Below, piece after piece: positions 762 to 16,674 of a stretch of DNA of 64,000 bases. A program made the position numbers and the translations under genes. The DNA comes from Alphaproteobacteria bacterium (GTDB lineage Bacteria > Pseudomonadota > Alphaproteobacteria > UBA828), in contig CBDEFM010000002.1 of NCBI GenBank assembly GCA_965237415.1, positions 1,440,001-1,504,000 of the forward strand. The letters are read 5' to 3'. Every line of letters starts with the position of its first letter. Within the stretch, counting starts at the first letter, position 1. A model generated the notes under the pieces. That model made no database searches. It was given only the letters and a program-made list of their open reading frames with translations, and was not told the origin of the DNA.

Positions 762-3224
762 TCAGGCCTGTTTCGCCTGGGCCTCACGGATGAGGGCGCG
801 GAGTCGGCTCGGCGGTAGCGGCAGGCTGTCGATGGTGACGCCCAGGGGCTTGAGCGCGTCCTCGATGGCGCCGGCGATCGCCGGCGGGGCGCCCATGCGC
901 CCGCCCTCGCCGCCGCCCTTCACTCCGTACTCGGTGAAGGGGGACGGCGTCTCGACGTGGCCGACGACGATATCGACCGGCGTCTCCTTGATGGTCGGGA
1001 TCAGATAGTCGGTCCAGAGCGCGGTCGTGAGCTGGCCGGCCTCGTCGTAGCTGAACTCTTCGAAGAGCGCGGTGCCGATACCGTTCACCGTGCCGCCCCG
1101 GATGTGCCCCTCTAGCGTCATGGGATTGACCATCGTGCCGCAGTCGTGGACGGCGGCGTAGTGGAGAAACTGCACCTGGCCGGTCTCGATATCGACCTCG
1201 ATCACCGGGATGTGACAGCTATGGCCCATGATCGGATAGAAGATCCCCATGTGCCGCTCGTCGGGGTCCGGGAGCGTCGTCACCGGATGGTCGTAGACGT
1301 AGGTCGCGTCGAGCCCGCTGGTGAGGTCGAGGTCCTCGGGCATGCTGAGCCGGTAGTAGTGCGCCTTGTCGGCGAGCTCGGCGATGCTCATCTTCATGCC
1401 GGGCACGCCCTTGACGTGCACCGCGCCGTCCTCCAGCGCGAGATCGCGGACGTCGGCTTCCATGAGATGCGCGGCGAAGCGGAACAGCTTCTCGCGGATC
1501 TTGCCGGCGGCGCCGACGATGGCGCCGGTCACCATGACCGTGAAGCGGCTGCCGCCCGGCCCGGTCGAGTTGAGGCCCTGGTCGGTGTCCGAATAGGTGA
1601 TCTCGATGTCCGCAGGGTCGATGGTGAGCTGCTCGGCGAGCACCTGGGCCGCCACCGTCTCGGGGCTGTTGCCCCAGAATGGCGAATGCAGCGTGACGAA
1701 GGCCTTGCCGGTGGGGTCGATCTTGACCGAGACCGCGTCGGGCGAGCTAGTCCACTCGACGCCCGGTTCCAGATTCCACATCCAGAACTCGGTGGCGCTG
1801 AAGACGCTCCGCTCCTGGCAGGTGGCGACGCCGATGCCGATGTAGCGGCCCTCAGCCCGCGCCTCGGCCTGCTTTGCCCGCCAGCCGTCCACGTCGGCGA
1901 GCTTCAGCGTCTCGTCGAGCACCGCCTGATAGTTGCCGCTGTCGTACATGTTCCCGGTCGGGATCAGATAGGGGAACTGGTCGGGCTGGATGAAGTTCTG
2001 CCGCCGGAGCACGATCCGGTCGACACCGAGCTCGTCGGCAGCCGCGTCCACCAGCCGTTCGATGACGAAGTTCGCGACCTCGGAGCCGAAGCCGCGATAG
2101 GCGCCCTGCTGGCACTTGTTGGTCAGCACGGCGGCCAGATCGATCTCCACGCTGTTGATGCGGTAGGGACCCACGCATTGCGAGAGCGCGTTGCCGTGCT
2201 GGCCGACGCCGAACTGCAGATAGGCGCCATAGTCGTCGATGATCCGGGTCTTCAGGCTGAGCAGCGTGCCGTCCCGCTTGAGCGCGAGCTTGGCGTAGTA
2301 GACGCGGTCCGACGCGTGATTGTCGCAGCTCGTGGTGTTGTCGATCCGGTCTTCCATGAACTTGACCGGCCGCCCCGCCGCGCGCGCCAGCACCGCGGCC
2401 AGCACCGGGACCTTGTGGACGAACATCTTGCTGCCGAAGCTGCCGCCCGCCAGCGTCGGCACGATGTTGAGCTTGTGGGCCGGCACGCGGAGCGTGCTTG
2501 CGATCATCCAGCCGCAGTAGTTGTACATCGACGTATTGCACTGGATGGTGAAGCGGCCCGCGCCGTCATCGAAGCTCGCCACGGCGCCAACCGTCTCCAG
2601 CGGCTGGCCGCCCGAGCGCGGCCAGCGGAAGCGGCGCTCGATTACCAGATCGGCGGCCGCGAAATCCTCCTCCACCGGCCCGAAGGTGAGCTTGCGCTCA
2701 AGCGCGATATTGGTGTCGCCACGCGCGGGGTGCAGGACGGCATCGCCCGCAGACGTCAGCGCCTCTTCGGGGTCGACGACCGGGGGCAACGGTTCGTATT
2801 CGACCTCGATCAGATCGCACGCGTCCTCGGCGATGTAGCGATCCTCCGCCGCCACCGCCGCCACCGCCTCGCCGACATGGCGCACCCGGTCATGGGCGAT
2901 CACCGACTGGAGCACCGGCGGGCTCGCCCAGGTGGGAAGCGGGTCGCAGACTTTCGCGGCATCGGCGCCGGTCATCACGCAGAGAACGCCAGGGAGCGCT
3001 TGAGCCTTGCTCACGTCGATGGAGACGATCCTGGCATGGGCATGGGGGCTCCGCAGCACCGCCGCGTGCGCCATCTCGGGCACGTTGACATCGTCGGCAT
3101 AAATGCCCTTGCCGACGAGGAGGCGCGGGTCCTCCACCCGCTTCATGCTCTTGCCGATCCATTGCAGGTCGCCGCGCGGTTTCTCCCGCTGCCGGCTCTC
3201 GGGGATATGGCCGCGCTCGCTCAT
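762..3224 (-). CDS. Xanthine dehydrogenase family molybdopterin-binding large subunit (paralogue 1, AYRGFG loop), 820 aa
   Basis: Start MSERGHIPES at 3224 overlaps the upstream stop (ATGA); motifs RVEDPRLL, RSPHAHARI, GGSFGSK, AYRGFG, KGGGEGG. Confidence 0.92.
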   Translation of the reverse strand: MSERGHIPESRQREKPRGDLQWIGKSMKRVEDPRLLVGKGIYADDVNVPEMAHAAVLRSPHAHARIVSIDVSKAQALPGVLCVMTGADAAKVCDPLPTWASPPVLQSVIAHDRVRHVGEAVAAVAAEDRYIAEDACDLIEVEYEPLPPVVDPEEALTSAGDAVLHPARGDTNIALERKLTFGPVEEDFAAADLVIERRFRWPRSGGQPLETVGAVASFDDGAGRFTIQCNTSMYNYCGWMIASTLRVPAHKLNIVPTLAGGSFGSKMFVHKVPVLAAVLARAAGRPVKFMEDRIDNTTSCDNHASDRVYYAKLALKRDGTLLSLKTRIIDDYGAYLQFGVGQHGNALSQCVGPYRINSVEIDLAAVLTNKCQQGAYRGFGSEVANFVIERLVDAAADELGVDRIVLRRQNFIQPDQFPYLIPTGNMYDSGNYQAVLDETLKLADVDGWRAKQAEARAEGRYIGIGVATCQERSVFSATEFWMWNLEPGVEWTSSPDAVSVKIDPTGKAFVTLHSPFWGNSPETVAAQVLAEQLTIDPADIEITYSDTDQGLNSTGPGGSRFTVMVTGAIVGAAGKIREKLFRFAAHLMEADVRDLALEDGAVHVKGVPGMKMSIAELADKAHYYRLSMPEDLDLTSGLDATYVYDHPVTTLPDPDERHMGIFYPIMGHSCHIPVIEVDIETGQVQFLHYAAVHDCGTMVNPMTLEGHIRGGTVNGIGTALFEEFSYDEAGQLTTALWTDYLIPTIKETPVDIVVGHVETPSPFTEYGVKGGGEGGRMGAPPAIAGAIEDALKPLGVTIDSLPLPPSRLRALIREAQAKQA

Positions 3225-3703
3225 GGGCCGTCCTCCCGCATCAGGCGTGCCGCGTGCTGGATCGACTCCACGATGGTCTGATAGCCGGTGCAGCGACAGA
3301 GATTGCCGGAGATGGTGTCGCGGATATCGTCGACGGAGGGGTCGGGGTTCCGCTTCAGGAGCTCGACCGCGGTCATCAGCATCCCCGGCGTGCAGAAGCC
3401 GCACTGAAGGCCGTGCTTCTCCCAGAACGCCTGCTGCACCGGGTGCATCGCGTCGACCGTGCCGAGACCCTCGATGGTCCCGATCTCGGCGCCGTCCGCC
3501 ATTACTGCGAAGGTGAGGCAGGAGCGGGCGGTGACGCCGTCCATCATCACCGTGCAAGAGCCGCAGACGCCGTGCTCGCAGCCGACATGGGTGCCGGTGA
3601 GGCGCAGGTCGTCGCGCAGGAAGTCGCTGAGCAACCGGCGCGGCTCGACCGTGCGCTCGTAGGCCCTGCCGTTGACGGTGACGCCGATCGTCTCGCGCTC
3701 CAT
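3221..3703 (-). CDS. (2Fe-2S) small subunit of Mo-hydroxylase (CoxS-like)
   Basis: [28 protein letters not shown]. Confidence 0.95.
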   Translation of the reverse strand: MERETIGVTVNGRAYERTVEPRRLLSDFLRDDLRLTGTHVGCEHGVCGSCTVMMDGVTARSCLTFAVMADGAEIGTIEGLGTVDAMHPVQQAFWEKHGLQCGFCTPGMLMTAVELLKRNPDPSVDDIRDTISGNLCRCTGYQTIVESIQHAARLMREDGP

Positions 3704-3715
3704 TGCCCTACCCTC

Positions 3716-4573
3716 TCAGGAACAGCGCTCGACGGCCCGGCGCAGCGTCCGCCGGGTGAGCGCGGCGATGGCTTCGCGCCGGTAGGCGGCATCGGCGTGG
3801 CTGTCGCTGTGGGGATCGACCGCGCCCGCGGCCGCGGCTGCCGCGCGATCGAGGCTTGCATCGTCGATGGGCCTGCCGATGAGCGCCTCCTCCGCCGGCA
3901 CAAGCCGCGCCGCGTGCTCGCCGACCCCGCTCGCCACCACGCGCGCCGCCCGGCAGTGGCCGTTGGCAAGCCGCAGCGTCGTCGCGATCACTGCGATGGC
4001 GAAGTCGCCGTGCCGGTTGCTGATCTCGGCGAAGGCCCAGCCGTGGGCGCCGCGGCCGGGAATGCGAGTCTCCACCAGCATCTCGTCCTGCTGGGCCGCG
4101 GTTTCGTAGGTGCCGAGGAAGAAGTCCTCCGCCGCGACCTCGCGGCTGCCGCGCAGGCTCCGCAGCACCAGCGTGGCGCCCACGGCGATCATCACCGCCG
4201 GCGTCTCCGAGGAAGGGTCGGCGTGGCAAAGGTTGCCGCCGAGGGTGCCGCGGTTGCGCACCGTGTGGTGCGCGATGGATTCATAAGCTTCCGTCAGCAG
4301 CGGGCAGCGCGCCCCGACCAGCGGCGAATGCTTGACGTCGTTGTGCCGGGCAAGGGCGCCGATGGCGATGCCGTCGCCATCCTCCCCGATGTAGCCCAGG
4401 TCGGGAACGCGGTTGATGTCGATCAGGCAGGCGGGCTTGACGAGCCTGAGGTTCATCATGGCAATCAGGCTCTGGCCGCCCGCAAGGATCCGGGCATCGG
4501 GGTTGTCGGCTAGCGCTTGTAGTGCGTCGTCGACGCTCGCAGCGCGCAGGTAGCGGAAGCGCGGCGGCTTCAT
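3716..4573 (-). CDS. FAD-binding medium subunit of Mo-hydroxylase (CoxM-like)
   Basis: MKPPRFRY, AGGQSL, RNRGTLGGNLCHADP. Confidence 0.93.
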   Translation of the reverse strand: MKPPRFRYLRAASVDDALQALADNPDARILAGGQSLIAMMNLRLVKPACLIDINRVPDLGYIGEDGDGIAIGALARHNDVKHSPLVGARCPLLTEAYESIAHHTVRNRGTLGGNLCHADPSSETPAVMIAVGATLVLRSLRGSREVAAEDFFLGTYETAAQQDEMLVETRIPGRGAHGWAFAEISNRHGDFAIAVIATTLRLANGHCRAARVVASGVGEHAARLVPAEEALIGRPIDDASLDRAAAAAAGAVDPHSDSHADAAYRREAIAALTRRTLRRAVERCS

Positions 4574-5370
4574 CGAGCGAGCGCCGCGCGGACAGCGCGC
4601 TTCGCCATCACGCCGACGAGGTGCGCGCGGTAGTCCTTGTCGGCGTGCAGGTCCTCATTGAGCCCTTCGCTATCCACCGCAATGCCAGAGACCGCCTCTT
4701 CGGTGAAGTTGGCCGCGAGCGCCGCCTCCATTTCCGGCACGCGGAAGACGTGGGACCTGGCGCCCGTGACGGCGAGGCGCACCCTGCCGCCTGCCAGCGA
4801 CACCATCACCGCGACCACGGCGAAGCGCGAAGCCTGGTTGCCGAACTTGGCCCAGCCCGCGCGCTCGGGGATCGGGAAGTCGACCGAGACCACGATCTCG
4901 CCGTCCACCAGCGCGGTCTCGTAAAGCCCGGTGAAGAAGTCGTCGGCGGCAATCGTCCGCCGGTCGGTGTTAACTGTGGCCCCCAGACCGAGCAGGCCAG
5001 CCGGGTAGTCGGCCGCCGGGTCGGCGAAGCAGATCGAGCCGCCGATGGTGCCGCGGTTGCGCACCTGCACGTCGCCGATGGAACCCGCGAGCGCCGCGAG
5101 CGCGGGGATCGCCCCCCTCACCTCGGGCGATTCTGCGACCGCCACGTGCCGGGTCATGGCGCCAATCCGAATATGCCCATCCTGCCGCTCGATCCCGGCC
5201 AGCGCGTCGATGCCGTTGAGATCCACCAGGTCATCACAGGGGGCAAGGCGGAAGCGCATCGTCGGGATCAGGCTCATGCCGCCGGCGAGCAGCCGGCCGT
5301 CCGCGCTCGCGGCGAGACGGGCCTTGGCGTCGTCGAGCGAGGCGGGCCGGTGGTAGGCGAAGGGATACAT
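4570..5370 (-). CDS. FAD-binding medium subunit of Mo-hydroxylase (form-II CoxM-like)
   Basis: Start re-called at MYPFAYHRP (5370); AGGMSLIP, VRNRGTIGGS, DPAADYPA. Confidence 0.9.
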   Translation of the reverse strand: MYPFAYHRPASLDDAKARLAASADGRLLAGGMSLIPTMRFRLAPCDDLVDLNGIDALAGIERQDGHIRIGAMTRHVAVAESPEVRGAIPALAALAGSIGDVQVRNRGTIGGSICFADPAADYPAGLLGLGATVNTDRRTIAADDFFTGLYETALVDGEIVVSVDFPIPERAGWAKFGNQASRFAVVAVMVSLAGGRVRLAVTGARSHVFRVPEMEAALAANFTEEAVSGIAVDSEGLNEDLHADKDYRAHLVGVMAKRAVRAALAR

Positions 5371-5381
5371 CGTGCGCCCCC

Positions 5382-5882
5382 TCAGCCGCTGGCTTCGCGC
5401 CCGCGCGCGTGGGCGCGCGACGCCTTGGCGCCGGCGGCGATGGATTCGACGATGTTGTGATAGCCCGTGCAGCGGCAGAGATTGCCTTCGAGCTCGCTGC
5501 GGATCGTCGCTTCGTCGGGCGCCTCGTGGCGGTTTGCGATGTCGATCCCCATCATCACGATGCCGGGGGTGCAGAAGCCGCACTGCAGGCCGTGATGCTC
5601 CTTGAACGCGGCCTGCATCGGGTGCAGCCCGTCCGGCCCGGCGATGCCCTCGATGGTGGTGACCTCGGCGCCCTCCAGTTGCACCGCCAGCAGCGCGCAG
5701 GACTTCACCGGCTTGCCGTCGAGGTGGACGGTGCAGGCCCCGCACTGGCTGGTGTCGCAGCCGACATGGGTGCCGGTGAGCCTGAGCTCCTCGCGCAGGA
5801 AGTGGACCAGGAGCGTGCGCGGATCGACCGCCGCCGCGACCTCCCGGCCGTTCACGGTGAAGGTGACCGACGCCTTGTCCAT
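5382..5882 (-). CDS. (2Fe-2S) small subunit of Mo-hydroxylase (CoxS-like)
   Basis: [28 protein letters not shown]. Confidence 0.95.
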
Positions 5883-5910
5883 CGCTTCTCCCTCGCGACC
5901 GATCGCGGCG

Positions 5911-8280
5911 CTAGTGCTGCGCCCGCCTCGCGTCCTCGATGGCGCGCCAGATCTTCTTGGGCGTCATCGGCTGCGTGATCTGGCGCACGCCGAGATGCCA
6001 GAGCGCATCGATCACCCCGTTGCAGATGCAGGCGGGCGCGCCGATGGTGCCGCTCTCGCCCGCACCCTTGGCACCCAGCGGATTGCCGAGCGCCCTGGTG
6101 AAGTGCGAATCGAGGCCGAAGGAGGGCACGTCCTCGGCGTGGGGCACGGCGTAATCCATGAACGTGCCCGAGAGGTACTGGCCGGTCTCGGAATCGTAGG
6201 CGCATTCCTCCATCAGCGCCTGGCCGATGCCCTGGACCAGACCGCCGTGAACCTGCCCCTCAAGCACCATGGGATTGATGACCGTGCCGACATCGTCCAC
6301 CGCCCAGTAGTTGCGGAGCGTCACGGCGCAGGTCTCGGGATCGACGAGCACGACGCAGAGATGAACCGCCGAGGGATAGGTGCAATCGGCGGGGTCGAAG
6401 AACGAGGTCTCCTCCAGGCCGATCTCCAGGTCCGACGGCCGGTCGCCGGAATGGTAGGCGGCGTTGGCCACCTCCGAGAACGCGAGCCTCCTGTCCGTGC
6501 CCTTGACCGTGAACTCGCCGTCGGCGAGGTCGAGGTCTTCGGGCGCGCACTCCATCATGTGCGCCGCGAGCCGCTTGGCCTTCGCCACCACCCGGTCGGC
6601 GGCGGTGTAGACCGCCATGCCGGCGGTGGAAAGCGAGCGCGAGCCCCAGGTGCCGATGCCCATGGGCACCCGGTCGGTATCGCCCTCGACCACGTCGATG
6701 TGGTCGATGTCGCAGCCGAGGCGATCGGCGGCGATCTGGCTCCAGGTGGTTTCGTGGCCCTGCCCGTGGCTGTGGCTGCCGGCGAACACGGTGATGCGCC
6801 CGTCCGGATGGACGCGCACGCTGGCGACGTCGTAGCAGCCGACCTTGGCGCCGAGGTCGTTCATCATCTTCACCGGGCCGGCGCCGGCCATGTCGAAGAA
6901 GGCCGAGATGCCGATGCCCATCCACTGCCCTTCTGCCCTGAGCGCCGCCTGCTCCGCGCGGAGCGCATCGTAGTCGCAAAGCGCCTTGATCTTCGCCATG
7001 AGCGCGGGCGGATCGCCGGAATCGTAGGTGATGCCGAGGGCGGTCTGGTAGGGGAACTTCTCGGGGGGGATCAGGTTGCGGGCGCGGAGCTCCAACGGGT
7101 CGATGCCCATCTCCTGCGCGCCGTTCTCGATCATGCGCTCCACCTGATAGACCGCCTCGGGCCGGCCGGCGCCGCGATACGCGTCCACCGGCGTCGCGTT
7201 GGTGTAGACGGCGCGCACGGTGGTGTGGATCGCCGGGATGTCGTAGGCGAGCGAGAGCATGGTGAAGTGGTAGGCGTTGGTAATGCTCGCCTGCCACTGG
7301 CTCTCGTAGGCGCCGAAGGCGGCCAGGGTCTCGAACTTCACGCCGAGGATCTTGCCGCTCTCATCGAATCCCATGCGGCCGACCGTGTGGTGGTCCCTGG
7401 CGTGGGTGTCGCCCAGCAGGCATTCGGAGCGCGTGCCCACCCAGCGCACCGGCCGGTCGCAGACGATGGCGCCCCAGAGCACCAGCGCCTCCTCGGGATA
7501 GTGGTAGAGCTTCATGCCGAAGCCGCCGCCGACGTCCGGTGCGATGACCCTGAGCTTGTGCTCGGGGATGTGCAGCGACTTGGTGAAGTAGCGGCGCACG
7601 ATGTGCGGCGCCTGGTTGGTGGTCCACACCGTGTAGCGGTCGTTGACCCGGTCGTAGTGGCCCAGATAGCAGCGGGGCTCCATCGAGGCGGCGGTGATGC
7701 GGTTGGAGGGCACCGCGACCTCGGTCACGTGATGGGCCTTCGCCAGCGCGGCCTCGGTCTCCTCCTTGAGCCCATGCTCGGTGACCAGCACCTCGTTGGT
7801 GCCGAAGCCGGGATGCACGAGCGGGGTCTCGGGGTCGAGCGCGCTCGCGGTGAGGATGTTGGCCGGCTTCTCCTCATACGTGACCTCGACCGCCTCGGCG
7901 GCATCGAGGGCCTGATGACGGTCCTCGGCGACGACCATGGCGACGATCTCACCGACGCAGCGGACCACGCCGTCGACGCAGATGAGCGGCCGGTAGGCGG
8001 TACGGGCGTCCGCGCCGCTCCTGTCCTTGACCGGCCAGACGCCCTCGGCCTCACCATGGCCGGCTTGGGTCCAGTCCTTGCCGGTGAGCACCGAGAGCAC
8101 CCCCGGCATGGATGCGGCCCGCGACGTATCGACGCGCGTCACCGCAGCATGGGCATGGGGATTGCGGACGAAGGCGGCATGGGCAATCGGCTGGTCGAGG
8201 GTCACATCCTCGACGAAGCGGCCGCGCCCCCGGAGGAAGCGCTCGTCCTCCCGGCGCAGAATCGCCTGACCGACGTACAT
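5911..8280 (-). CDS. Xanthine dehydrogenase family large subunit, form-II CoxL-like
   Basis: [16 protein letters not shown] (form II, not the form-I AYRCSFR of true CO dehydrogenase), HGQGHET, KGAGESG. Confidence 0.92.
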
Positions 8281-8319
8281 GGACCCCCTCCCTGCGCGCG
8301 TGCCGCTCTTGCCGGCGGC
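8235..8319. repeat. 5' end plus upstream region of the 5911..8280 gene, duplicated at 10463..10546
   Basis: atcgcctgaccgacgtacatgg(a)ccccctccc..gcgcgcgt.ccgctctt.ccggcggc occurs at both sites. Confidence 0.9.
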
Positions 8320-8608
8320 CGCCCCGCGCTTGCGCCTTGCTCTCTATCGAATACCTTATCAGGATCAGTCGCTCTCGCACCACTGAGCAAGAGCACCGAA
8401 GCCGCAGAATGAGCAGCAGGGTTTCCGAGCCAGCGTTCCGGATCGTTATGACCGTCCTCGACGAAATCACCAATGACCACGCCAACAACCAGAAGGCTGC
8501 TTTAGCATCCCCCGCTCTAACCAGTCACTGGGGTCGCGGTGTCCCACGATCTCGACCTACCACACCCACTTTTTCATGCAGCTCCAACGAAAGCACTCGT
8601 GCATTCTT

Positions 8609-9397
8609 CTATTTATCCTTGTTGGTCCCAGCTTCCTTGCTCAAGATAAACACTTTGTAAGGCTCAATCTCCGCATAAGCCTTGGACAACCCAACCCACC
8701 CCTTATTGTGAAACAGGCTGCTGAGAGTGCAAAATGCCTCCCTCAAACGAAGTAGTTTCTCGCCCACAACCTCATGTTCTAAACCCGCCGCCAGTTTACT
8801 TTGGATTACTTGGAGAGCCGGATCATTCAAGACTTCATTGGAATCCAGATCAAGCTTCGTCTGTGCAGCACCAGCTCCAACAATCGGCAACTGAGTTCCG
8901 ACATATCTTTTTGGCTGCCACCAATGGTTCTTCCCTGAAAATTCTATTATCGCAAAAGGAACATCAACATTTCCTTCTGTTGGAACACCAACATTCTCTT
9001 TTGCAATTACCTTGCCCCAATCGCTAAAGTCGCCGGCTTCATTAATCTCCAAGTAATTCTTTTGCCACTCGGCCCAAATTGACTCAGGCTCATATGCATA
9101 TCTGACCTTTTCGAGCGAAGGTGCCGATTCCTCCTTTCCGAACAGAGCCTTATTGACCCGAGCCCACCCCTCCCCGAACGTCAACGATCGCGCGGAATAA
9201 TATTCATCTTTCTCGAAGCCTCCAGAAATCGCTTCAATAGCATAGGGCCCCACACAAACGTCCTGTATCAGTCCCATATTAGTTAACGAAAGGTCAACTG
9301 CCTGTTCATCCGCTACTGAAATTGCTGGTATCACCAGTACAAGGCCCATTGCCGCCCTAGCATAAATCTTGCGGAGTTCTGTTCCCAAAGCACTCAC
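8609..9397 (-). CDS. Low-GC hypothetical protein with probable signal peptide
   Basis: Long ORF in AT-rich DNA; GTG at 9397 follows GGAG and sits just after the upstream stop; N-terminus ..RKIYARAAMGLVLVIPAISVA-DEQ. Confidence 0.65.
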   Translation of the reverse strand: MSALGTELRKIYARAAMGLVLVIPAISVADEQAVDLSLTNMGLIQDVCVGPYAIEAISGGFEKDEYYSARSLTFGEGWARVNKALFGKEESAPSLEKVRYAYEPESIWAEWQKNYLEINEAGDFSDWGKVIAKENVGVPTEGNVDVPFAIIEFSGKNHWWQPKRYVGTQLPIVGAGAAQTKLDLDSNEVLNDPALQVIQSKLAAGLEHEVVGEKLLRLREAFCTLSSLFHNKGWVGLSKAYAEIEPYKVFILSKEAGTNKDK

Positions 9398-9401
9398 GGC
9401 T

Positions 9402-9803
9402 TTACTCCCGAAGCAGCTCAGAGACAAGACCTGCCACCAAATAGGTAAATGCAGGCAACATAGCTCCATATACAAAGTGCCGAACTAATGATCCCGTTCG
9501 GATTCCAAAAGCCACAATCGCCGCAAAAATTGAGGAATAAACCACAATAGCAATCAATAGATACAGCCCTAATAGATTTAGATCGATGAAGCCAATATCA
9601 ACATGCCCTTGGGCAGAGCCGACTATCACAATTGCAAAATGCAATACTAGGCATCCCCAAAGTGCCACAAGGAACCGAGAAAGAATGTTGTGGGTACTAC
9701 CGTCACCACGAAGAAACTCGACTAGAAGGCTGATCATGCTTGACGCTGTCACGTCTTGCTTCCTTGCCTCACACTTGTTATCGGTTCCCCGGACACGCCA
9801 CAC
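9402..9803 (-). CDS. Low-GC hypothetical membrane protein (about 3-4 hydrophobic segments)
   Basis: Hydrophobic stretches FLVALWGCLVLHFAIVIVG, LLGLYLLIAIVVYSSIFAAIVAFG, FVYGAMLPAFTYLVAGLV; start uncertain. Confidence 0.6.
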   Translation of the reverse strand: MWRVRGTDNKCEARKQDVTASSMISLLVEFLRGDGSTHNILSRFLVALWGCLVLHFAIVIVGSAQGHVDIGFIDLNLLGLYLLIAIVVYSSIFAAIVAFGIRTGSLVRHFVYGAMLPAFTYLVAGLVSELLRE

Positions 9804-10172
9804 GGGCTTACCACCTCTCCACAGCCTCCTGTGGTCGCATACATTTTCAACGTCAGTGCAAAATGCTCAGAAATATACAACGCAAATTCTAGGCTAATAC
9901 CATAAAGTTGAGAACAGTCAAAAAACAATCCCTCTGAGATTTATCCAGTCCAATTAAAGTCCTCCACACCTATTGCGAGACAATATAGCAAGACCGCCAG
10001 GAAATTCAAGCACTCGTTGTGCGTAGGACAGCTTCAAGACGAGAAGAAATAGAACTCCGCATTCCTCTGCGCCGCGTGTAACACTTGTCGCACGGATTCT
10101 GACATTTTCGCGCGGCGCTGGTAAGCGCGCGAACTGTGGGGTGCGCACCACGGTGTCGAACGGCGCCGGTAC

Positions 10173-10474
10173 TCACCCCCCGTTCGCCTCCGCCTCGCGG
10201 ATCATGCCGCGCAGCACCTTGGGCGTGAGCGGGAGCGAGTCCACCTTGACGCCCAAGGGCTTGAGCGCGTCCTCGACCGCCGCGGCGATCGCCGGCGGCG
10301 CGCCCATGCGCCCGCCTTCGCCGCCGCCCTTGATGCCGTACTCGGTGAAGGGCGACGGCGTCTCCACATGGCCCACGCGGATGTGGACCGGGGTCTCCAT
10401 CAGGGTCGGGTGCAGATAATCGCTCAGCAGCACGTTCTGTAGCTGGCCGTTCTCGTCATAGTGGAAGTGCTCGT
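10173..10474. repeat. Diverged 302-bp direct copy of 11326..11627 (3' end of large-subunit paralogue 3)
   Basis: Colinear, same-length match with scattered, mostly synonymous substitutions. Confidence 0.92.
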
Positions 10475-10508
10475 CCGCCCAGCGCAGGATCGCCTGACCG
10501 ACGTACAT
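10173..10508 (-). pseudogene. Chimeric in-frame mini Mo-hydroxylase large subunit (111 aa): N-terminus of the 5911..8280 gene fused to the C-terminus of the 11326..13797 gene
   Basis: [13 protein letters not shown] (cf. [13 protein letters not shown]) joined to EHFHYDENGQLQNV...GMIREAEANGG (cf. ...GMIREAEQNGG). Confidence 0.88.
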
Positions 10509-10663
10509 GGCCCCCTCCCCGCGCGCGTACCGCTCTTCCCGGCGGCTGACCGACACTTGTGTGTCGTTTCTCCGTTCAACAATATCAGCGCCGGACGTCA
10601 TAGCAACATGGTTGCCTGCTACTGCCCGCGCGGCGGCCAACTGCAACAGTGTGAGGATTGGAA

Positions 10664-11182
10664 ATGGGTATTTTACTTAGACTTCTGGTTCGTGCCTTCC
10701 TCCCGACTCCGCGGCGGAATAAACGGCGCGGAGCTTCTCGCCGAACAAGAGGATTGAGGCCCGGAGCAACGATTAGTGGAAAGGCATATGTCATCGACGG
10801 CGACACGATTAGAGTCTCCGGTGAAAGGATACGCCTCTCCGGCCTCGACGCACCCGAGGTTGATCAGGTGGCGAAGCACCAGGACGGCTACTGGTTCAAG
10901 CAGGGGCAGCGCATCAAGAGCGCGCTGATAAATGAGATCGGGGGGAAGGTCGTCAGGCTCACCGTCGAGGGATACGACAAATATGACCGAGTCCTCGGCA
11001 TCGTGACCTGCGATGGCCGGGATATCGGCGAGTGGCTCGTCTGGAACGGCTACGCGATTGCCGCTTTCGGAGAGCGGTATAGACACCTGGAACTCGACGC
11101 TCAACGAGCGCAGCGCGGGATGTGGGCGCACGCCGCCCGATATGACCCGAGGGACTGGCGGCGCATGACATTGAACAGCTGA
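10664..11182 (+). CDS. Thermonuclease (SNase-like) family protein
   Basis: VIDGDTI, IRLSGLDAPE, DKYDRVLG, LVWNGYA, AQRAQRGMW; ATG at 10664 after GAGG. Confidence 0.88.
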   Translation: MGILLRLLVRAFLPTPRRNKRRGASRRTRGLRPGATISGKAYVIDGDTIRVSGERIRLSGLDAPEVDQVAKHQDGYWFKQGQRIKSALINEIGGKVVRLTVEGYDKYDRVLGIVTCDGRDIGEWLVWNGYAIAAFGERYRHLELDAQRAQRGMWAHAARYDPRDWRRMTLNS

Positions 11183-11194
11183 TTGACAAGCCAT

Positions 11195-11226
11195 CGGGAG
11201 GCTGGCGGCAAGCCGCCTGCCTCCCG
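11195..11226. terminator. GC-rich hairpin between the convergent nuclease and large-subunit genes
   Basis: cgggaggc-t-ggcggc-aa-gccgcc-t-gcctcccg. Confidence 0.55.
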
Positions 11227-11325
11227 CTATTGCATCGGCGCCGCCCGGTCCGGTGAACGCCAGGGGCGTCCGTGCTGGTGGAACCTGGGCGCGGAAACAG
11301 GGGCGATGGACCAAGAAAGCGGCGC

Positions 11326-13797
11326 TCAGCCCCCGTTCTGCTCCGCCTCGCGGATCATGCCGCGCAGCACCTTGGGCGTGAGCGGGAGCGAATCCACCTT
11401 GATGCCGAGCGGCTTGAGCGCGTCTTCGACGGCCGCGGCGATGGCCGGCGGGGCGCCCATGCGCCCGCCTTCGCCGCCGCCCTTGATGCCGTACTCGGTG
11501 AAGGGGGACGGCGTCTCCACATGGCCCACGCGGATGTCGACCGGCGTCTCCATCAGGGTCGGGTGCAGGTAGTCGCTCAAGAGCACGTTCTGAAGCTGCC
11601 CGTTCTCGTCATAGTGGAAGTGCTCGTAGAGGGCGCTGCCGATACCGTTCACGGTGCCGCCCCGCACGTGGCCGGCGAGGGTCATCGGGTTGACCATGGT
11701 GCCGCAGTCGTGGACGGCCACGTAGTCGAGGAAGTCGACCTTTCCGGTCTCTATATCCACCTCGACCACCGGGATGTGACACATGTGGCCGACGATCGGA
11801 TAGAAGATGCCGAGGTCGGAACGATCCTCCGACGGCATGGTCGTGACCGGATGGTCGTAGACGTAGGCCGCGTCGATGCCGCTGGTGAGGTCGTGATCCT
11901 CCGGCAGGTCCAGCCTGAAGTAGTGGGCGTGGAGCGCCACCTCGGCGAGGGTCTTCTCCTTGCCGGGCACGCCCTGGACGCCGATCGAGCCCGCGCGGAA
12001 TTCGAGATCGCTCGGATCCGCCTCCAGCATGTGGCTGGCGACGCGCAGCATCTTCTCCTTGATCACGTCGGCGGCGCCGCTGACGGCGCCCGCGATCATC
12101 ACCGTGAACCGGCTGCCGCCCGGCCCCGACGAGTTGAAGCCCTTGTCGGAATCGGCGTAACCGACCGAAATATCAGCGGGATCTATCTCCAGCTTCTCGG
12201 CCAGCACCTGCACCGCCATCGTCTCGGGGCTGTTGCCCCAGAAGGGCGCGTTCAGCGTGATGAACGCCTTGCCGGTGGGATCGATGTTGATGGCGACACT
12301 CTCCGGCGAGCTCGAGAGCGTGAAGCCCGGTGTCTCGTTCGGGTTCCACATCCAGAACTCGGTGGCGCTGAAGACGCTCCGCTCCTGGCAGGTGGAGATG
12401 CCGATGCCGATGTAGCGGCCTTCCTTCCGCGCCTCGGCCTGCTTCTTGCGCCAGCCGTCGTAGTCGATCATGCCGAGCGCCTCGTCGAGCACGGCCTGAT
12501 AGTTGCCGCTGTCGTACATGTTGCCGGTCGGCATGATGTAGGGGAACTGGTCCTTCTCGATCAGGTTCAGCCTACGCATCTCCACCGGGTCGATGCCGAG
12601 CTCCTCGCAGGCCGCGTCGACCAGGCGCTCGATCACGAAGTTGCCGACCTCGGAGCCGAAGCCGCGATAGGCTCCCTGCTGGCACTTGTTGGTGAGCACG
12701 GCGGTGAGGTCGACCTCGACGCTGTTGATCTTGTAGGGGCCGGTCACCTGCGCCATCGCATTGCCGTGCTGGCCGACGCCGTACTGGAAGTAGGCGCCGT
12801 AGTCGTCGATCACCTTGAGCCGCATGCTCAGCATCGCGCCGTCGCGCTTCAACGCGAGCTTGGCGTCGTAGAGGCGGTCGGAGCCGTGGGCGTCGCCGCT
12901 CGTCATGTTGTCGATGCGGTCTTCCAGATACTTGACCGGCCGGCCGGCGGCGCGGGCGAGCGTGCCGGCGAGCGTGCAGACCTTGTGGCAGAAAAGCTTG
13001 CTGCCGAAGCTGCCGCCGGCGTCGGTCGGCACGATGTTGAGCCGGTGTGGATCGACCTTGAGCGAGACCGCGATCAGCCAGCCGACGTAGTTGTACATCG
13101 ACGTGTTGGCATGGATCGTGAACTTGCCCGTGCCCCGGTCGTAGTGGGCGGTGGCGCCGACGGTCTCGATCGGCGTGCCGCCTGAGCGCGGCCAGCGCAG
13201 CCTGCGCTCGATCACGAGATCGGCGGCGGCGAAATCCTCGTCCACCGTGCCGAAATTAATCGTGCGCTGGAGCGCCACGTTGGTATCGCCGCGTTCGGGA
13301 TGGAGCACGGCATCGCCGGTCGATGTCACTGCCTCTTCGAGATCGACGACCGCCGGCAGCGGATCGTACTCGACCTCGATCAGCTCGCAGGCGTCCTCGG
13401 CGATATAGCGGCTGTCCGCCACGACGGCGGCGACCGCCTCGCCCACGTGGCGCACCTTGCCCACGGCGATGCAGTACTGCGGCGTCGGCGGGCTCGAAAA
13501 ATCCGCGCACGGCCCCGTGACCTCCGCCGCCTCGGCGCCGGTCATGACGCAGAGCACGCCGGGCAGCGCCTCGGCCTTCGACTTGTCGATGCTCACGATG
13601 CGGGCGTGGGCATGGGGGCTGCGCAGCACCGCGGCATGCGCCATGTTGGGCAGCGACACGTCGTCCGCATAGGTGCCAGAGCCGGTGAGCAGGCGGGTGT
13701 CCTCTACCCGCTTCATGCTGTGCCCGATGGCGAAGTACTTGGACTTGGGCTTCTCGCGCTGACGCGATTCGGGGATGTAATGGCGTTCGCGGGTCAT
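11326..13797 (-). CDS. Xanthine dehydrogenase family large subunit (paralogue 3, AYRGFG loop), 823 aa
   Basis: Start MTRERHYIPES at 13797 (ATGA overlap); GGSFGSK, AYRGFG, KGGGEGG; closely colinear with 762..3224. Confidence 0.92.
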   Translation of the reverse strand: MTRERHYIPESRQREKPKSKYFAIGHSMKRVEDTRLLTGSGTYADDVSLPNMAHAAVLRSPHAHARIVSIDKSKAEALPGVLCVMTGAEAAEVTGPCADFSSPPTPQYCIAVGKVRHVGEAVAAVVADSRYIAEDACELIEVEYDPLPAVVDLEEAVTSTGDAVLHPERGDTNVALQRTINFGTVDEDFAAADLVIERRLRWPRSGGTPIETVGATAHYDRGTGKFTIHANTSMYNYVGWLIAVSLKVDPHRLNIVPTDAGGSFGSKLFCHKVCTLAGTLARAAGRPVKYLEDRIDNMTSGDAHGSDRLYDAKLALKRDGAMLSMRLKVIDDYGAYFQYGVGQHGNAMAQVTGPYKINSVEVDLTAVLTNKCQQGAYRGFGSEVGNFVIERLVDAACEELGIDPVEMRRLNLIEKDQFPYIMPTGNMYDSGNYQAVLDEALGMIDYDGWRKKQAEARKEGRYIGIGISTCQERSVFSATEFWMWNPNETPGFTLSSSPESVAINIDPTGKAFITLNAPFWGNSPETMAVQVLAEKLEIDPADISVGYADSDKGFNSSGPGGSRFTVMIAGAVSGAADVIKEKMLRVASHMLEADPSDLEFRAGSIGVQGVPGKEKTLAEVALHAHYFRLDLPEDHDLTSGIDAAYVYDHPVTTMPSEDRSDLGIFYPIVGHMCHIPVVEVDIETGKVDFLDYVAVHDCGTMVNPMTLAGHVRGGTVNGIGSALYEHFHYDENGQLQNVLLSDYLHPTLMETPVDIRVGHVETPSPFTEYGIKGGGEGGRMGAPPAIAAAVEDALKPLGIKVDSLPLTPKVLRGMIREAEQNGG

Positions 13798-14285
13798 TGC
13801 CCCTCTCCCTGCATTCGTTCGGCCGCGGCCTGCACCGCCTCGACGATTGTCTGGTAGCCGGTGCAGCGGCAGAGGTTGCTCGACATCGCCTCGCGAATCT
13901 CGTCGAGGCTCGGATTGGGCGTGCTCTCCAGCAACTCGACCGCCGTCATCAGCATGCCCGGCGTACAGAAGCCGCATTGCAGGCCGTGCTTCTCCCAAAA
14001 CGCCTCCTGCAGCGGGTGCATGTCGTCGACACCGCCGAGGCCTTCGATGGTGCGGACCTCAGCCCCCGCCGCCTGGACGGCGAGCATCAGGCAGGAGCGT
14101 GCGGCCTCGCCGTTGACGAGCACGGTGCAGGCGCCGCAGACCCCGTGCTCGCAGCCGACATGGGTGCCGGTGAGCCCGAGCTTCTCGCGCAGGAAGTCGC
14201 TGAGCAGCATGCGCGGCTCGGCGTCGGCCGCGCGGCGCTCGCCATTGACGACAAGCTCGACGGTACGTGGCGTCGTCATCTCCAC
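13794..14285 (-). CDS. (2Fe-2S) small subunit of Mo-hydroxylase
   Basis: [28 protein letters not shown]. Confidence 0.95.
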   Translation of the reverse strand: MEMTTPRTVELVVNGERRAADAEPRMLLSDFLREKLGLTGTHVGCEHGVCGACTVLVNGEAARSCLMLAVQAAGAEVRTIEGLGGVDDMHPLQEAFWEKHGLQCGFCTPGMLMTAVELLESTPNPSLDEIREAMSSNLCRCTGYQTIVEAVQAAAERMQGEGQ

Positions 14286-14291
14286 CTCCCT

Positions 14292-15155
14292 TCAGTGGCA
14301 GCGGGAGGCGGCGTCGGCAAGCGCGCGCCGGGTCAGGCTGCGCACCAGATCGCGCCGATAGTCCGCGTCCGCGTGAAAATCTTCGCTGGGGTCGATGCTG
14401 TCCGCCGCCGCGGCCGCGGCCTGGCGAAAGGCATCGTCGCCCGGTGCCGCGCCTGCGAGCGCATCCTCGGCAGCACGCGCCCGGTGCGGCCCGTCGCCCA
14501 CGCCGGCGCAGACGATCCGCGCGCCAGTGCAGGCACCGTCCGCAAGCTCGACCGTCGCACCTACGGCCACGTAGGCGAAGTCGCCCTTGCGCGGGCTCAC
14601 CTCGTAAAAGGCCGCGCCCTGGCCGGCCGGCGCCTGCGGCACGCGGACCTCGACGAGAAGCTCGTTCGCCTCGGCTGCCGTGGAGAGCGTACCGGTGAAA
14701 AAGTCCTCGGCCCCGACGGTGCGCGTGCCGCCTGCGCTCCGCAGCACCATCTCAGCGCCGCTCGCCACGGCCACCGCCGGCATCTCCGACGCCGGGTCGT
14801 TATGGCAGAGGTTGCCGCAGAGCGTGCCGCGATTGCGGATCGGGCCGTGGGAAACATAGGGATAGGCGGCGGCCATCAAGGGCGAGGCCCCGCGCACGGC
14901 ATCCGCCTCCAGCACTGCCTTGTGGCGGGCGAGCGCGCCGATCCTGAGCTGCCCATCCTCCAGAGTCACATAGTCGAGGCCGGGCAGGCGGTTGATATCG
15001 ATCAGCACGTCCGGGTGCAGCGCCCGCAGGTTCAGCATCGGCACCAGGCTCTGGCCGCCCGCGATCACCTTGGCCGCCTCGCCGTGCTCGGCAAGCAGCG
15101 CCAGTGCCTCCTCCAGGGTCTCCGGACAGCAGTAGTCGAACGGTGGCGGTTTCAT
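14292..15155 (-). CDS. FAD-binding medium subunit of Mo-hydroxylase
   Basis: MKPPPFDY, AGGQSLVP, IRNRGTLCGNLCHNDP. Confidence 0.93.
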   Translation of the reverse strand: MKPPPFDYCCPETLEEALALLAEHGEAAKVIAGGQSLVPMLNLRALHPDVLIDINRLPGLDYVTLEDGQLRIGALARHKAVLEADAVRGASPLMAAAYPYVSHGPIRNRGTLCGNLCHNDPASEMPAVAVASGAEMVLRSAGGTRTVGAEDFFTGTLSTAAEANELLVEVRVPQAPAGQGAAFYEVSPRKGDFAYVAVGATVELADGACTGARIVCAGVGDGPHRARAAEDALAGAAPGDDAFRQAAAAAADSIDPSEDFHADADYRRDLVRSLTRRALADAASRCH

Positions 15156-16597: not shown

Positions 16598-16674
16598 TGG
16601 TCGGAGTGAGTGGACTTGAACCACCGACCCCCGCCTCCCGAAGACGGTGCTCTACCAAGCTGAGCTACACTCCG
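16598..16674 (-). tRNA. tRNA-Pro(CGG)
   Basis: Reverse complement CGGAGTGTAGCTCAGCTTGGTAGAGCACCGTCTT-CGG-GAGGCGGGGGTCGGTGGTTCAAGTCCACTCACTCCGACCA: cloverleaf, T-loop GGTTCAA, encoded CCA. Confidence 0.96.

Follow-up and report, generated by a model that had tools for sequence, protein, structure and literature searches.

Integron arrays are rows of small, promoter-proximal, exchangeable cassettes of foreign composition, with IntI and attC. Homology-facilitated illegitimate recombination was reportedly described by de Vries and Wackernagel in 2002, by Prudhomme in 2002 and by Meier and Wackernagel in 2003. In the available part of PMC10250203, the core defence hotspots cDHS1/2 of Pseudomonas aeruginosa have conserved flanks and lack a single mobilising element; recombination in the flanks is proposed there as the means of transfer, and the authors pose as an open question how such regions are built. 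For the orphan arrays of type VI secretion system (T6SS) effector-immunity modules in Vibrio cholerae, the accessible part of PMC5361080 proposes homology-facilitated illegitimate recombination and also mentions C-terminal displacement in Rhs and contact-dependent inhibition (CDI) systems. The same kind of recombination is the subject of the portion of PMC3240628 at hand. According to the available part of PMC3784515, transformation triggers merodiploids and tandem duplications by unequal crossover through alternative pairing of repeats, with a new joint. Here we describe the interval between two molybdoenzyme large-subunit genes, L3 and L2, on the minus strand of a 64,000-nt window (the whole stretch of DNA analysed, positions 1,440,001 to 1,504,000 of contig CBDEFM010000002.1, assembly GCA_965237415.1, from an Alphaproteobacteria bacterium). 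This interval, or slot, holds two unrelated cargos, each between the same pair of flanks, and the two units meet in an in-frame chimera of L2 and L3. The slot is probably an integrase-free variable hotspot which was doubled by one microhomology join plus homologous recombination between two alleles, and the chimera would be the scar of this event.

Like cDHS1/2 as presented in the text available to us, the slot carries variable, often low-GC cargo between two conserved genes with no single mobilising element, and defence cargos occur in it (NsnA-like and GmrSD in this case). Unlike cDHS1/2, for which that text gives medians of 6 and 26 kb, the slot is only 1.4-3 kb long. It is also empty in 6 of 12 relatives, being otherwise a 32-50 bp junction of two operon genes, and defence matches were obtained for 2 of 6 cargos. 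No mention of doubled flanks joined in a chimera was found in the available part of PMC10250203, and 'duplicat' as a word stem occurs 0 times in that paper. Like the T6SS, Rhs and CDI orphan arrays, as far as the accessible portion of PMC5361080 describes them, the locus has modules stacked without a site-specific recombinase and a 3' fragment of the conserved upstream gene between the modules. In those arrays, according to the same portion, there is one conserved anchor gene and the older module is pushed downstream, whereas here both flanking genes are fused in frame and the promoter-like motif of the downstream gene is duplicated. In addition, the cargos here are no recognisable toxin-immunity pairs, and L3 is a subunit of a Mo-dehydrogenase.

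As in homology-facilitated illegitimate recombination (available part of PMC3240628), one end would be anchored by homology and the other lies at a short GC-rich microhomology, and DNA was added, not swapped. That process is defined there by laboratory transformation or conjugation, whereas here it is deduced from a natural product. The merodiploids of PMC3784515 resemble the locus in that unequal crossover yields a tandem duplication with a new joint; in the part of that paper at hand IS861 fragments and 100-900 kb of identical DNA are involved, in contrast to a 12-nt microhomology, a unit of ~2.3 kb and different alleles here. With an integron the locus shares the row of small exchangeable cassettes of foreign composition; unlike in an integron, no IntI was found in the window, no attC-like conserved ends were seen, and the units are bounded by pieces of housekeeping genes. 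In the literature searched, we found no account of a hotspot that had been doubled through a chimera of its two flanking genes, which is not proof of absence. The integrase-free hotspot and the stacking belong to a known kind; the in-frame fusion of both flanking genes, the duplicated promoter-like motif, cargos that are not toxin-immunity pairs and the availability of empty, single and doubled states set this case apart.

Layout of the doubled interval

On the minus strand, the order is L3, an SNase-type nuclease gene, a 111-codon chimera, a cassette of 47-49% GC and L2, and the L3-L2 interval measures 3045 nt. The features are as follows, in window positions.

11326-13797, minus strand: L3, large (Mo-binding) subunit of the CoxL/xanthine-dehydrogenase family, last gene of the M3-S3-L3 operon (Pfam Ald_Xan_dh_C, MoCoBD_1, MoCoBD_2)
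11320-11627, minus strand: 3' end of L3 (last ~100 codons and stop), copy 1 of the left flank, with the microhomology at 11616-11627 (repeat search, alignment)
10664-11182, plus strand: cargo A, a gene of the thermonuclease (SNase) family, 172 amino acids (aa), convergent with L3 (Pfam SNase, E=9e-13)
10463-10609, minus strand: copy 2 of the right flank, with an L2-type promoter-like motif (TTGCTA 10606-10601 ... TGATAT 10587-10582), leader, ribosome-binding site (RBS) and L2 codons 1-13 (alignment)
10173-10508, minus strand: chimeric in-frame open reading frame (ORF), 111 aa, in which 13 L2 codons precede 98 L3 codons, with the junction at 10463-10474 (alignment)
10167-10466, minus strand: copy 2 of the left flank, the 3' end of the other L3 allele, 92% identical to copy 1 (repeat search, alignment)
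8383-10172, minus strand: cargo B, a low-GC cassette with its own AT-rich promoter-like sites (10009-9982, 9914-9886) (GC profile, promoter scan)
8235-8385, minus strand: copy 1 of the right flank, with the promoter-like motif (8382-8354), leader, RBS, the first 15 codons of intact L2 and the microhomology at 8235-8246 (alignment)
5911-8280, minus strand: L2, large subunit of the next CoxL-family operon, L2-S2-M2, which is followed by M1-S1-L1 (Pfam; orthologues in 35 loci)

The 3' end of L3 (11320-11619) recurs at 10167-10466, over 300 nt and with 92% identity, and the homology ends within ~4 nt past the stop codon. The start and leader of L2 recur as well, 8235-8292 at 10463-10520 (88% identity) and 8284-8332 at 10511-10559 (84%); the likeness of the right flanks fades towards about -100 nt and amounts to 75% over ~150 nt, promoter-like motif included. 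The two flank repeats abut at a 12-mer, GGAAGYGCTCGT, which is found in the 64 kb only at 8235-8246, 10463-10474 and 11616-11627 (0.04 matches expected); three matches were reached in 0 of 100 shuffles. At the joint, ACGAGC(A/G)CTTCC links positions +34 to +45 of L2 with positions -302 to -291 of L3. These positions are non-homologous and overlap in 11 of 12 nt.

The ATG of the chimera lies at 10508 and is preceded by the same ribosome-binding stretch, GGGAGGGGG, as that of L2. A 157-aa reading of the ORF from a TTG start was set aside, the ATG with its L2-type RBS being the sensible start. As a result of the fusion, the last 98 codons of an L3 allele stand before the low-GC cassette. When the chimera was compared with Pfam, only a weak fragment match to MoCoBD_2 was obtained (16.6 bits against a cut-off of 27).

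In an alignment of 276 coding nt, 15 synonymous and 3 non-synonymous changes separate the two L3 ends; the synonymous divergence (dS) is 0.258 and the ratio of non-synonymous to synonymous divergence (dN/dS) 0.057. Each copy, compared with 12 related L3 genes, gave dS of 0.25-0.61 and dN/dS of 0.03-0.15; for the L3 of the window against L3 genes of other species, dS was 0.25-0.37. Since the divergence of the copies equals between-species values, most of the changes would have accrued inside working L3 genes of separate lineages. This excludes a recent in-place duplication. Nor are the units mutual copies, as a plain tandem duplication would have it: the flanks are 92% and 75-88% identical and the cargos are unrelated. 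Going outwards from the joint, the first differences between the copies appear after 24 nt towards L3 and after 8-12 nt towards L2, and further ones occur throughout the repeats.

Some changes are private to the chimera. In its L2 part, R10W and E11A alter residues that are R and E in 19 of 19 L2 sequences compared. Its L3 part has 4 private changes, one of which turns D into H in VDIRV, a motif invariant in 13 other copies. Altogether, the private changes comprise 3 non-synonymous and 3 synonymous ones. One residue is shared by the two L3-end copies of the window, which read QNVLL (10430-10435 and 11583-11588) where 12 of 12 relatives, and a chimera-like protein of another assembly (P0001, see below), read QNALL; a short gene-conversion tract between the copies or homoplasy may account for it.

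The initial annotation had each cargo standing between the same pair of ends, and the repeat alignments confirm this layout with its exact coordinates. The minus-strand order that it gave was right, except that the nuclease is encoded on the plus strand, convergent with L3. Its view that the copies are two alleles and not a fresh duplication agrees with the between-species level of dS and dN/dS. The 12-bp microhomology that it placed at the fusion is present at three exact sites; it is not exceptional, at least 8 comparable sites being available between the two genes.

The interval in related genomes

A scan for L2 in species-representative genomes gave 35 loci, from metagenome-assembled genome (MAG) or strain records, the close ones belonging to Alphaproteobacteria or Rhodospirillales. 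M3-S3-L3 lies directly upstream of L2-S2-M2, on one strand, at 12 of the 35 loci. The slot is empty at six of these 12 (L002, L003, L008, L009, L010 and L021), with 32-50 nt from the L3 stop to the L2 ATG. A single insert of 1439-2237 nt is present at the other six, and five of the six inserts have 47-49% GC. The inserts are as follows.

L004, 1888 nt: an NsnA-like DUF262 protein (PADLOC, 4e-66) and a RiboL-PSP HEPN protein
L005, 1534 nt: proteins of no known family
L006, 1466 nt: a 244-aa protein (7054-7788) with a VHL beta domain (Pfam, 5.5e-8)
L007, 1578 nt: proteins of no known family
L019, 2237 nt: a restriction enzyme of GmrSD/Orf5 type (3.5e-131), its gene split into two ORFs
L022, 1439 nt: 65% GC, with HigB/HigA and a Phd-like antitoxin

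No nucleotide similarity was detected among the six inserts or between them and the window cargos, the flanks excepted, and the three cargo proteins of the window had 0 matches in the 35 loci. Unrelated cargos between the same flanks, in the same gene order, support the L3-L2 interval as a variable hotspot. The variable slot of the initial annotation is borne out by these loci, at which L3 and L2 are neither always adjacent nor always separated by the same cargo, and the stacking without an integrase that it proposed is in keeping with the window, where an integrase, transposase or recombinase domain was found in 0 of the 50 ORFs scanned across the 64 kb. PADLOC matched two of the six foreign cargos (L004, L019), one (L022) is a toxin-antitoxin system, and three had no match.

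Two of the inserts have peculiarities of their own. In the restriction gene of L019 (7903-9968) the N-terminal DUF262 part is separate, through a frameshift or an assembly indel. A VHL beta domain, as in the cargo of L006, is unusual for a bacterium; the L3 beside this cargo (6886-6925) has a different C-terminus, 13 codons longer, the insertion having apparently replaced the last L3 codons.

In six further close relatives (L001, L011, L012, L013, L018 and L023; L2 at least 81% identical in aa), the 10 kb upstream of L2 contained no L3. The region 3500-10000 of L001, which is the closest relative (L2 97% identical in aa), has a helix-turn-helix (HTH) transposase-like ORF (8379-9821) and an SDH-type ClpP-like protease (6933-7790). 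A reverse transcriptase of the group II intron type (4845-6329) and a stretch of 48-55% GC also lie upstream of L2 in L001.

On the left of the slot, homology between genomes stops at or within the last few L3 codons. On the right, it resumes at the promoter-like motif, ~60-95 nt upstream of the L2 ATG. This motif consists of TG(G/T)TGCC, ~15 nt and CTGATAT, and is followed by a leader with a small GC hairpin (GCCGCC..AGAGCGGC) and the RBS (8281-8385 and 10509-10609 of the window). It is present in the cargo loci, in the loci without L3 and upstream of the chimera. In 6 of 6 empty loci it is missing; L3 runs into the leader there, with hairpin and RBS kept, and L2 may be co-transcribed with L3 in these genomes. 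We infer a promoter function for the conserved motif. A consensus scan called 2 promoter-like sites (1.7 expected), both inside the cassette; it called no terminator behind either L3 or the chimera. Inspection of the boundaries revealed no sequence conserved at the cargo ends, and the repeat search gave no relevant inverted repeat.

Origin of the doubled arrangement

We consider the following course of events probable. Foreign, mostly low-GC genes, including anti-phage and toxin-antitoxin genes, sit between the L3 stop and the L2 promoter in a clade of uncultured alphaproteobacteria, and lineages would most likely swap these cargos through homologous recombination in the L3 and L2 flanks, which are conserved. 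In the genome studied here, two different slot alleles would have been joined head to tail. One end would have been made by an illegitimate join at the 12-nt (11/12) microhomology, through which L2 codon 12-14 became linked to a foreign L3, 300 nt short of its end, and the other end would have been resolved through ordinary homologous recombination. Homology-facilitated illegitimate recombination, unequal crossover and Campbell-type integration of a microhomology-closed circle would all give this same product. The 111-codon in-frame L2::L3 chimera would be a by-product, a scar and not a working gene; because it keeps the L2 promoter-like motif and RBS, transcription may still run through it into the low-GC cassette. 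The sequences show the anatomy of the locus, the allelic divergence of its two L3-end copies, the variability of the slot among relatives and the lack of recombinase genes in the window, whereas the recombination route, the identity of the resident cargo and any expression of the chimera are matters of inference.

Several results point to this course. The added DNA would come from a diverged donor, as dS is 0.26 between the L3 ends and the cassette has 47-49% GC in a window of 67% GC. The topology of the joint (end of unit, start of unit) is that of a tandem-duplication joint, but one between different alleles. Compared with L001, L2 is 89.7-95.0% identical over its first ~1.35 kb (6930-8280 of the window) and 95.1-98.0% identical over the next 1.35 kb; as a trace of the homologous crossover, this drop is only suggestive. 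Further dips in identity to L001 were noticed in M2 and M1 (alignment positions 2850-3750), and the whole region looks mosaic.

A number of observations weigh against this course or limit it. The signal in L2 could stem from the own history of L001, which has an island of its own there, and the identity fluctuates further downstream. Sliding-window identity over M3-S3-L3 gave no crossover signal, the relatives being about equally distant, and both right-flank copies are about equally like L001 (83% and 81%). As neither the L3 side nor the promoter region gives a signal, which cargo was resident is left undecided by both. A comparison of L2 (-110 to +600) with the final 1200 nt of L3 gave 13 register-matched 12-mers (up to 1 mismatch) at no fewer than 8 distinct sites, and with this many comparable sites the microhomology of the junction alone points to no mechanism. 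The private changes of the chimera fit relaxed constraint, in numbers too few for a test. The promoter-like motif scores 8/12 and was not called by the consensus scan. Matches to defence families were found for only 2 of the 6 foreign cargos and for neither window cargo. A second L3 end, a chimera or a doubled slot was found at 0 of the 35 loci, so the arrangement is rare. Finally, all the sequences are metagenome-assembled, and the outside support for the doubling consists of two protein clusters.

These two clusters came from a search for chimera-related proteins of 61-195 aa, with 120 matches listed. Among the matches listed, at least two proteins, P0001 and P0023, begin with the N-terminus of L2 and pass over to L3 at the residue where the chimera does. 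P0001 has 111 aa, 93% identity to the chimera and 3 member sequences, and is on a 17-kb contig; P0023 is a frameshifted version of the chimera on a 4.7-kb contig. The same junction in two protein clusters of other assemblies argues against misassembly. The L3-end ORFs P0020, P0033, P0056 and P0088 (partly frameshifted, on contigs of 5.7-113 kb) were not used as scars, as they could equally be assembly indels.

If the assembler or a chimeric read had concatenated two co-occurring strains with different cargos, a window that is probably metagenomic, two alleles at ~92% identity (which is what strain mixtures yield) and an arrangement seen in 0 of 35 reference loci would be expected. Such an artefact is nevertheless improbable, since an overlap of 11/12 nt is far below assembler k-mers, the same in-frame joint recurs with 93% identity in two protein clusters on other contigs, and the chimera has private substitutions on both sides of the joint. 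A genuine doubling could also have been made in two steps, by microhomology-mediated tandem duplication of the whole slot in one genome and later replacement of one cargo and part of the flanks by a foreign allele; or the doubled array could have been imported ready-made. This account is in keeping with the joint, whose topology is that of a tandem duplication with the same 12-mer as its flank. It is also in keeping with the sharing of the joint by P0001 and P0023 despite at least 8 alternative microhomologies, which favours a single old origin followed by inheritance or transfer of the joint; that one uniquely favoured microhomology gave rise to it repeatedly is less likely with so many comparable sites. 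The valine of QNVLL in both L3-end copies of the window, against alanine in 12 of 12 relatives, is a further point in its favour. However, with differences 8-24 nt from the joint, the replacement needs crossovers in very short joint-proximal tracts, and the L3-derived part shows no excess of private changes (4, against 0-5 in comparably distant orthologues), so it has not long been a pseudogene. We therefore regard the two-step account as possible, though rather unlikely. As to whether the array arose in one step here or was formed once and passed on, the present data do not separate the two.

The sequence at the joint lends itself to another explanation, in which site-specific recombination takes place at a site with the 12-mer as its core and a recombinase moves the cassettes as circles, as in integrons. 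The 12-mer is confined to the three sites that matter here; 7 of 12 relatives have it conserved in L3 and 2 relatives in L2, and the same joint is seen elsewhere (P0001, P0023). Against this stand the lack of an integrase or recombinase in the window, the mismatches of most L2 orthologues to the 12-mer and the absence of a conserved motif at the cargo ends on inspection; above all, the cargos at 6 of 6 single-cargo loci lie between the L3 stop and the L2 promoter-like motif, never at the 12-mer. We judge this explanation extremely improbable. It is also highly improbable that selection maintains the 111-aa chimera as a functional mini-protein or that it serves as a leader regulating the cassette. 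It is true that it is in frame, has an L2-type RBS and promoter-like motif, occurs in a full 111-aa version elsewhere (P0001) and shows a low dN/dS against L3. However, divergence that took place when the sequence still belonged to intact L3 genes accounts for the low dN/dS, three private changes hit otherwise invariant residues, P0023 is frameshifted, an open frame of 111 codons is weak evidence in DNA of 67% GC, and the Pfam fragment match is only sub-threshold.

A bolder reading, in which the chimera would be more than a one-off scar, can be put forward tentatively, namely that of a heritable, transferable spacer which turns a two-flank hotspot into a recombinase-free cassette array. If this is true, 300 nt of L3 as left arm and ~150 nt of L2 promoter and start as right arm would make each slot swappable independently, and the copy of the L2 promoter-like motif would drive the next cassette. 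The joint shared by other assemblies with different flanking alleles would then mean spread or re-use in the population, and an integron-like architecture would have been built from housekeeping-gene fragments only.

The locus is of value since empty, single-cargo (six) and doubled states can be compared at the same 32-50 nt site, and the joint records the event. It suggests a concrete route by which islands could grow by accretion instead of replacement, with new internal homology arms and a second copy of the promoter-like motif arising in the process. Short ORFs annotated as 'molybdopterin-binding' at such sites may be scars, usable as markers of past stacking.

Cargos and surrounding genes

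The segment from the L3 stop to the promoter-like motif of the chimera, which holds the nuclease, has 61.8% GC. The window has 67.2% GC, the cassette (8383-10172) 48.9% and its core 46.9%. The remaining features named in the text are as follows.

14292-15155, minus strand: M3, first gene of the M3-S3-L3 operon
13794-14285, minus strand: S3, middle gene of the M3-S3-L3 operon
9402-9737, minus strand: cassette ORF 1, 111 aa from the ATG at 9737 (133 aa from a GTG at 9803), hydrophobic, with 2-3 membrane-span-like segments (ORF translation)
8609-9397, minus strand: cassette ORF 2, 262 aa from the GTG at 9397, with a signal-peptide-like N-terminus (ORF translation)

Neither cassette ORF had a match in Pfam, PADLOC or NCBIfam, and no toxin or immunity family was matched by the window cargos in these three collections. 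For the 262-aa protein, the AlphaFold model (8 sequences) had a mean pLDDT of 31.9 and was unusable, and ESM Atlas gave no usable match. The cassette had no blastn match, the 262-aa protein no tblastn match and the 8.1-kb locus no megablast match in the plasmid and phage collections; blastn and tblastn searches gave no match to the cassette in the 35 loci either. Rfam gave 0 matches at E<=1 over 8000-11800. All that can be said from the translations is that the cassette appears to pair a membrane protein with an exported protein. Only seven homologous clusters of the 262-aa protein, none of them with a protein name, were found in 5.8 billion proteins; the best (P0121, 95%) is on a 1.64-Mb contig.

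In PADLOC, the nuclease had a weak SNc+LTD match (E=7e-7), which was its only match in the defence library. It has 241 homologues at E<=1e-10, the best with 94% identity (P0128), and P0132 is a 73% homologue. The named homologues are thermonuclease family proteins of Defluviicoccus or Alphaproteobacteria.

The only tRNA gene of the window, tRNA-Pro (CGG), lies on the minus strand at 16598-16674, 5 kb from the slot. Its neighbours are an acyl-CoA dehydrogenase-like gene and a methyltransferase gene, with no island attached to it within the window.

By Pfam and synteny, three consecutive operons for CoxL/xanthine-dehydrogenase-family molybdoenzymes, M3-S3-L3, L2-S2-M2 and M1-S1-L1, occupy 762-15155 of the minus strand. 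Every NCBIfam match of these gene sets was below the curated cut-off, those to large subunits of CO dehydrogenase and glyceraldehyde dehydrogenase included. L3 orthologues at 12 loci have 88-96% aa identity, and L1 and L3 are ~71% identical. This order of three molybdoenzyme sets is kept in 11 of the 12 L3-bearing relatives, L021 being the exception.

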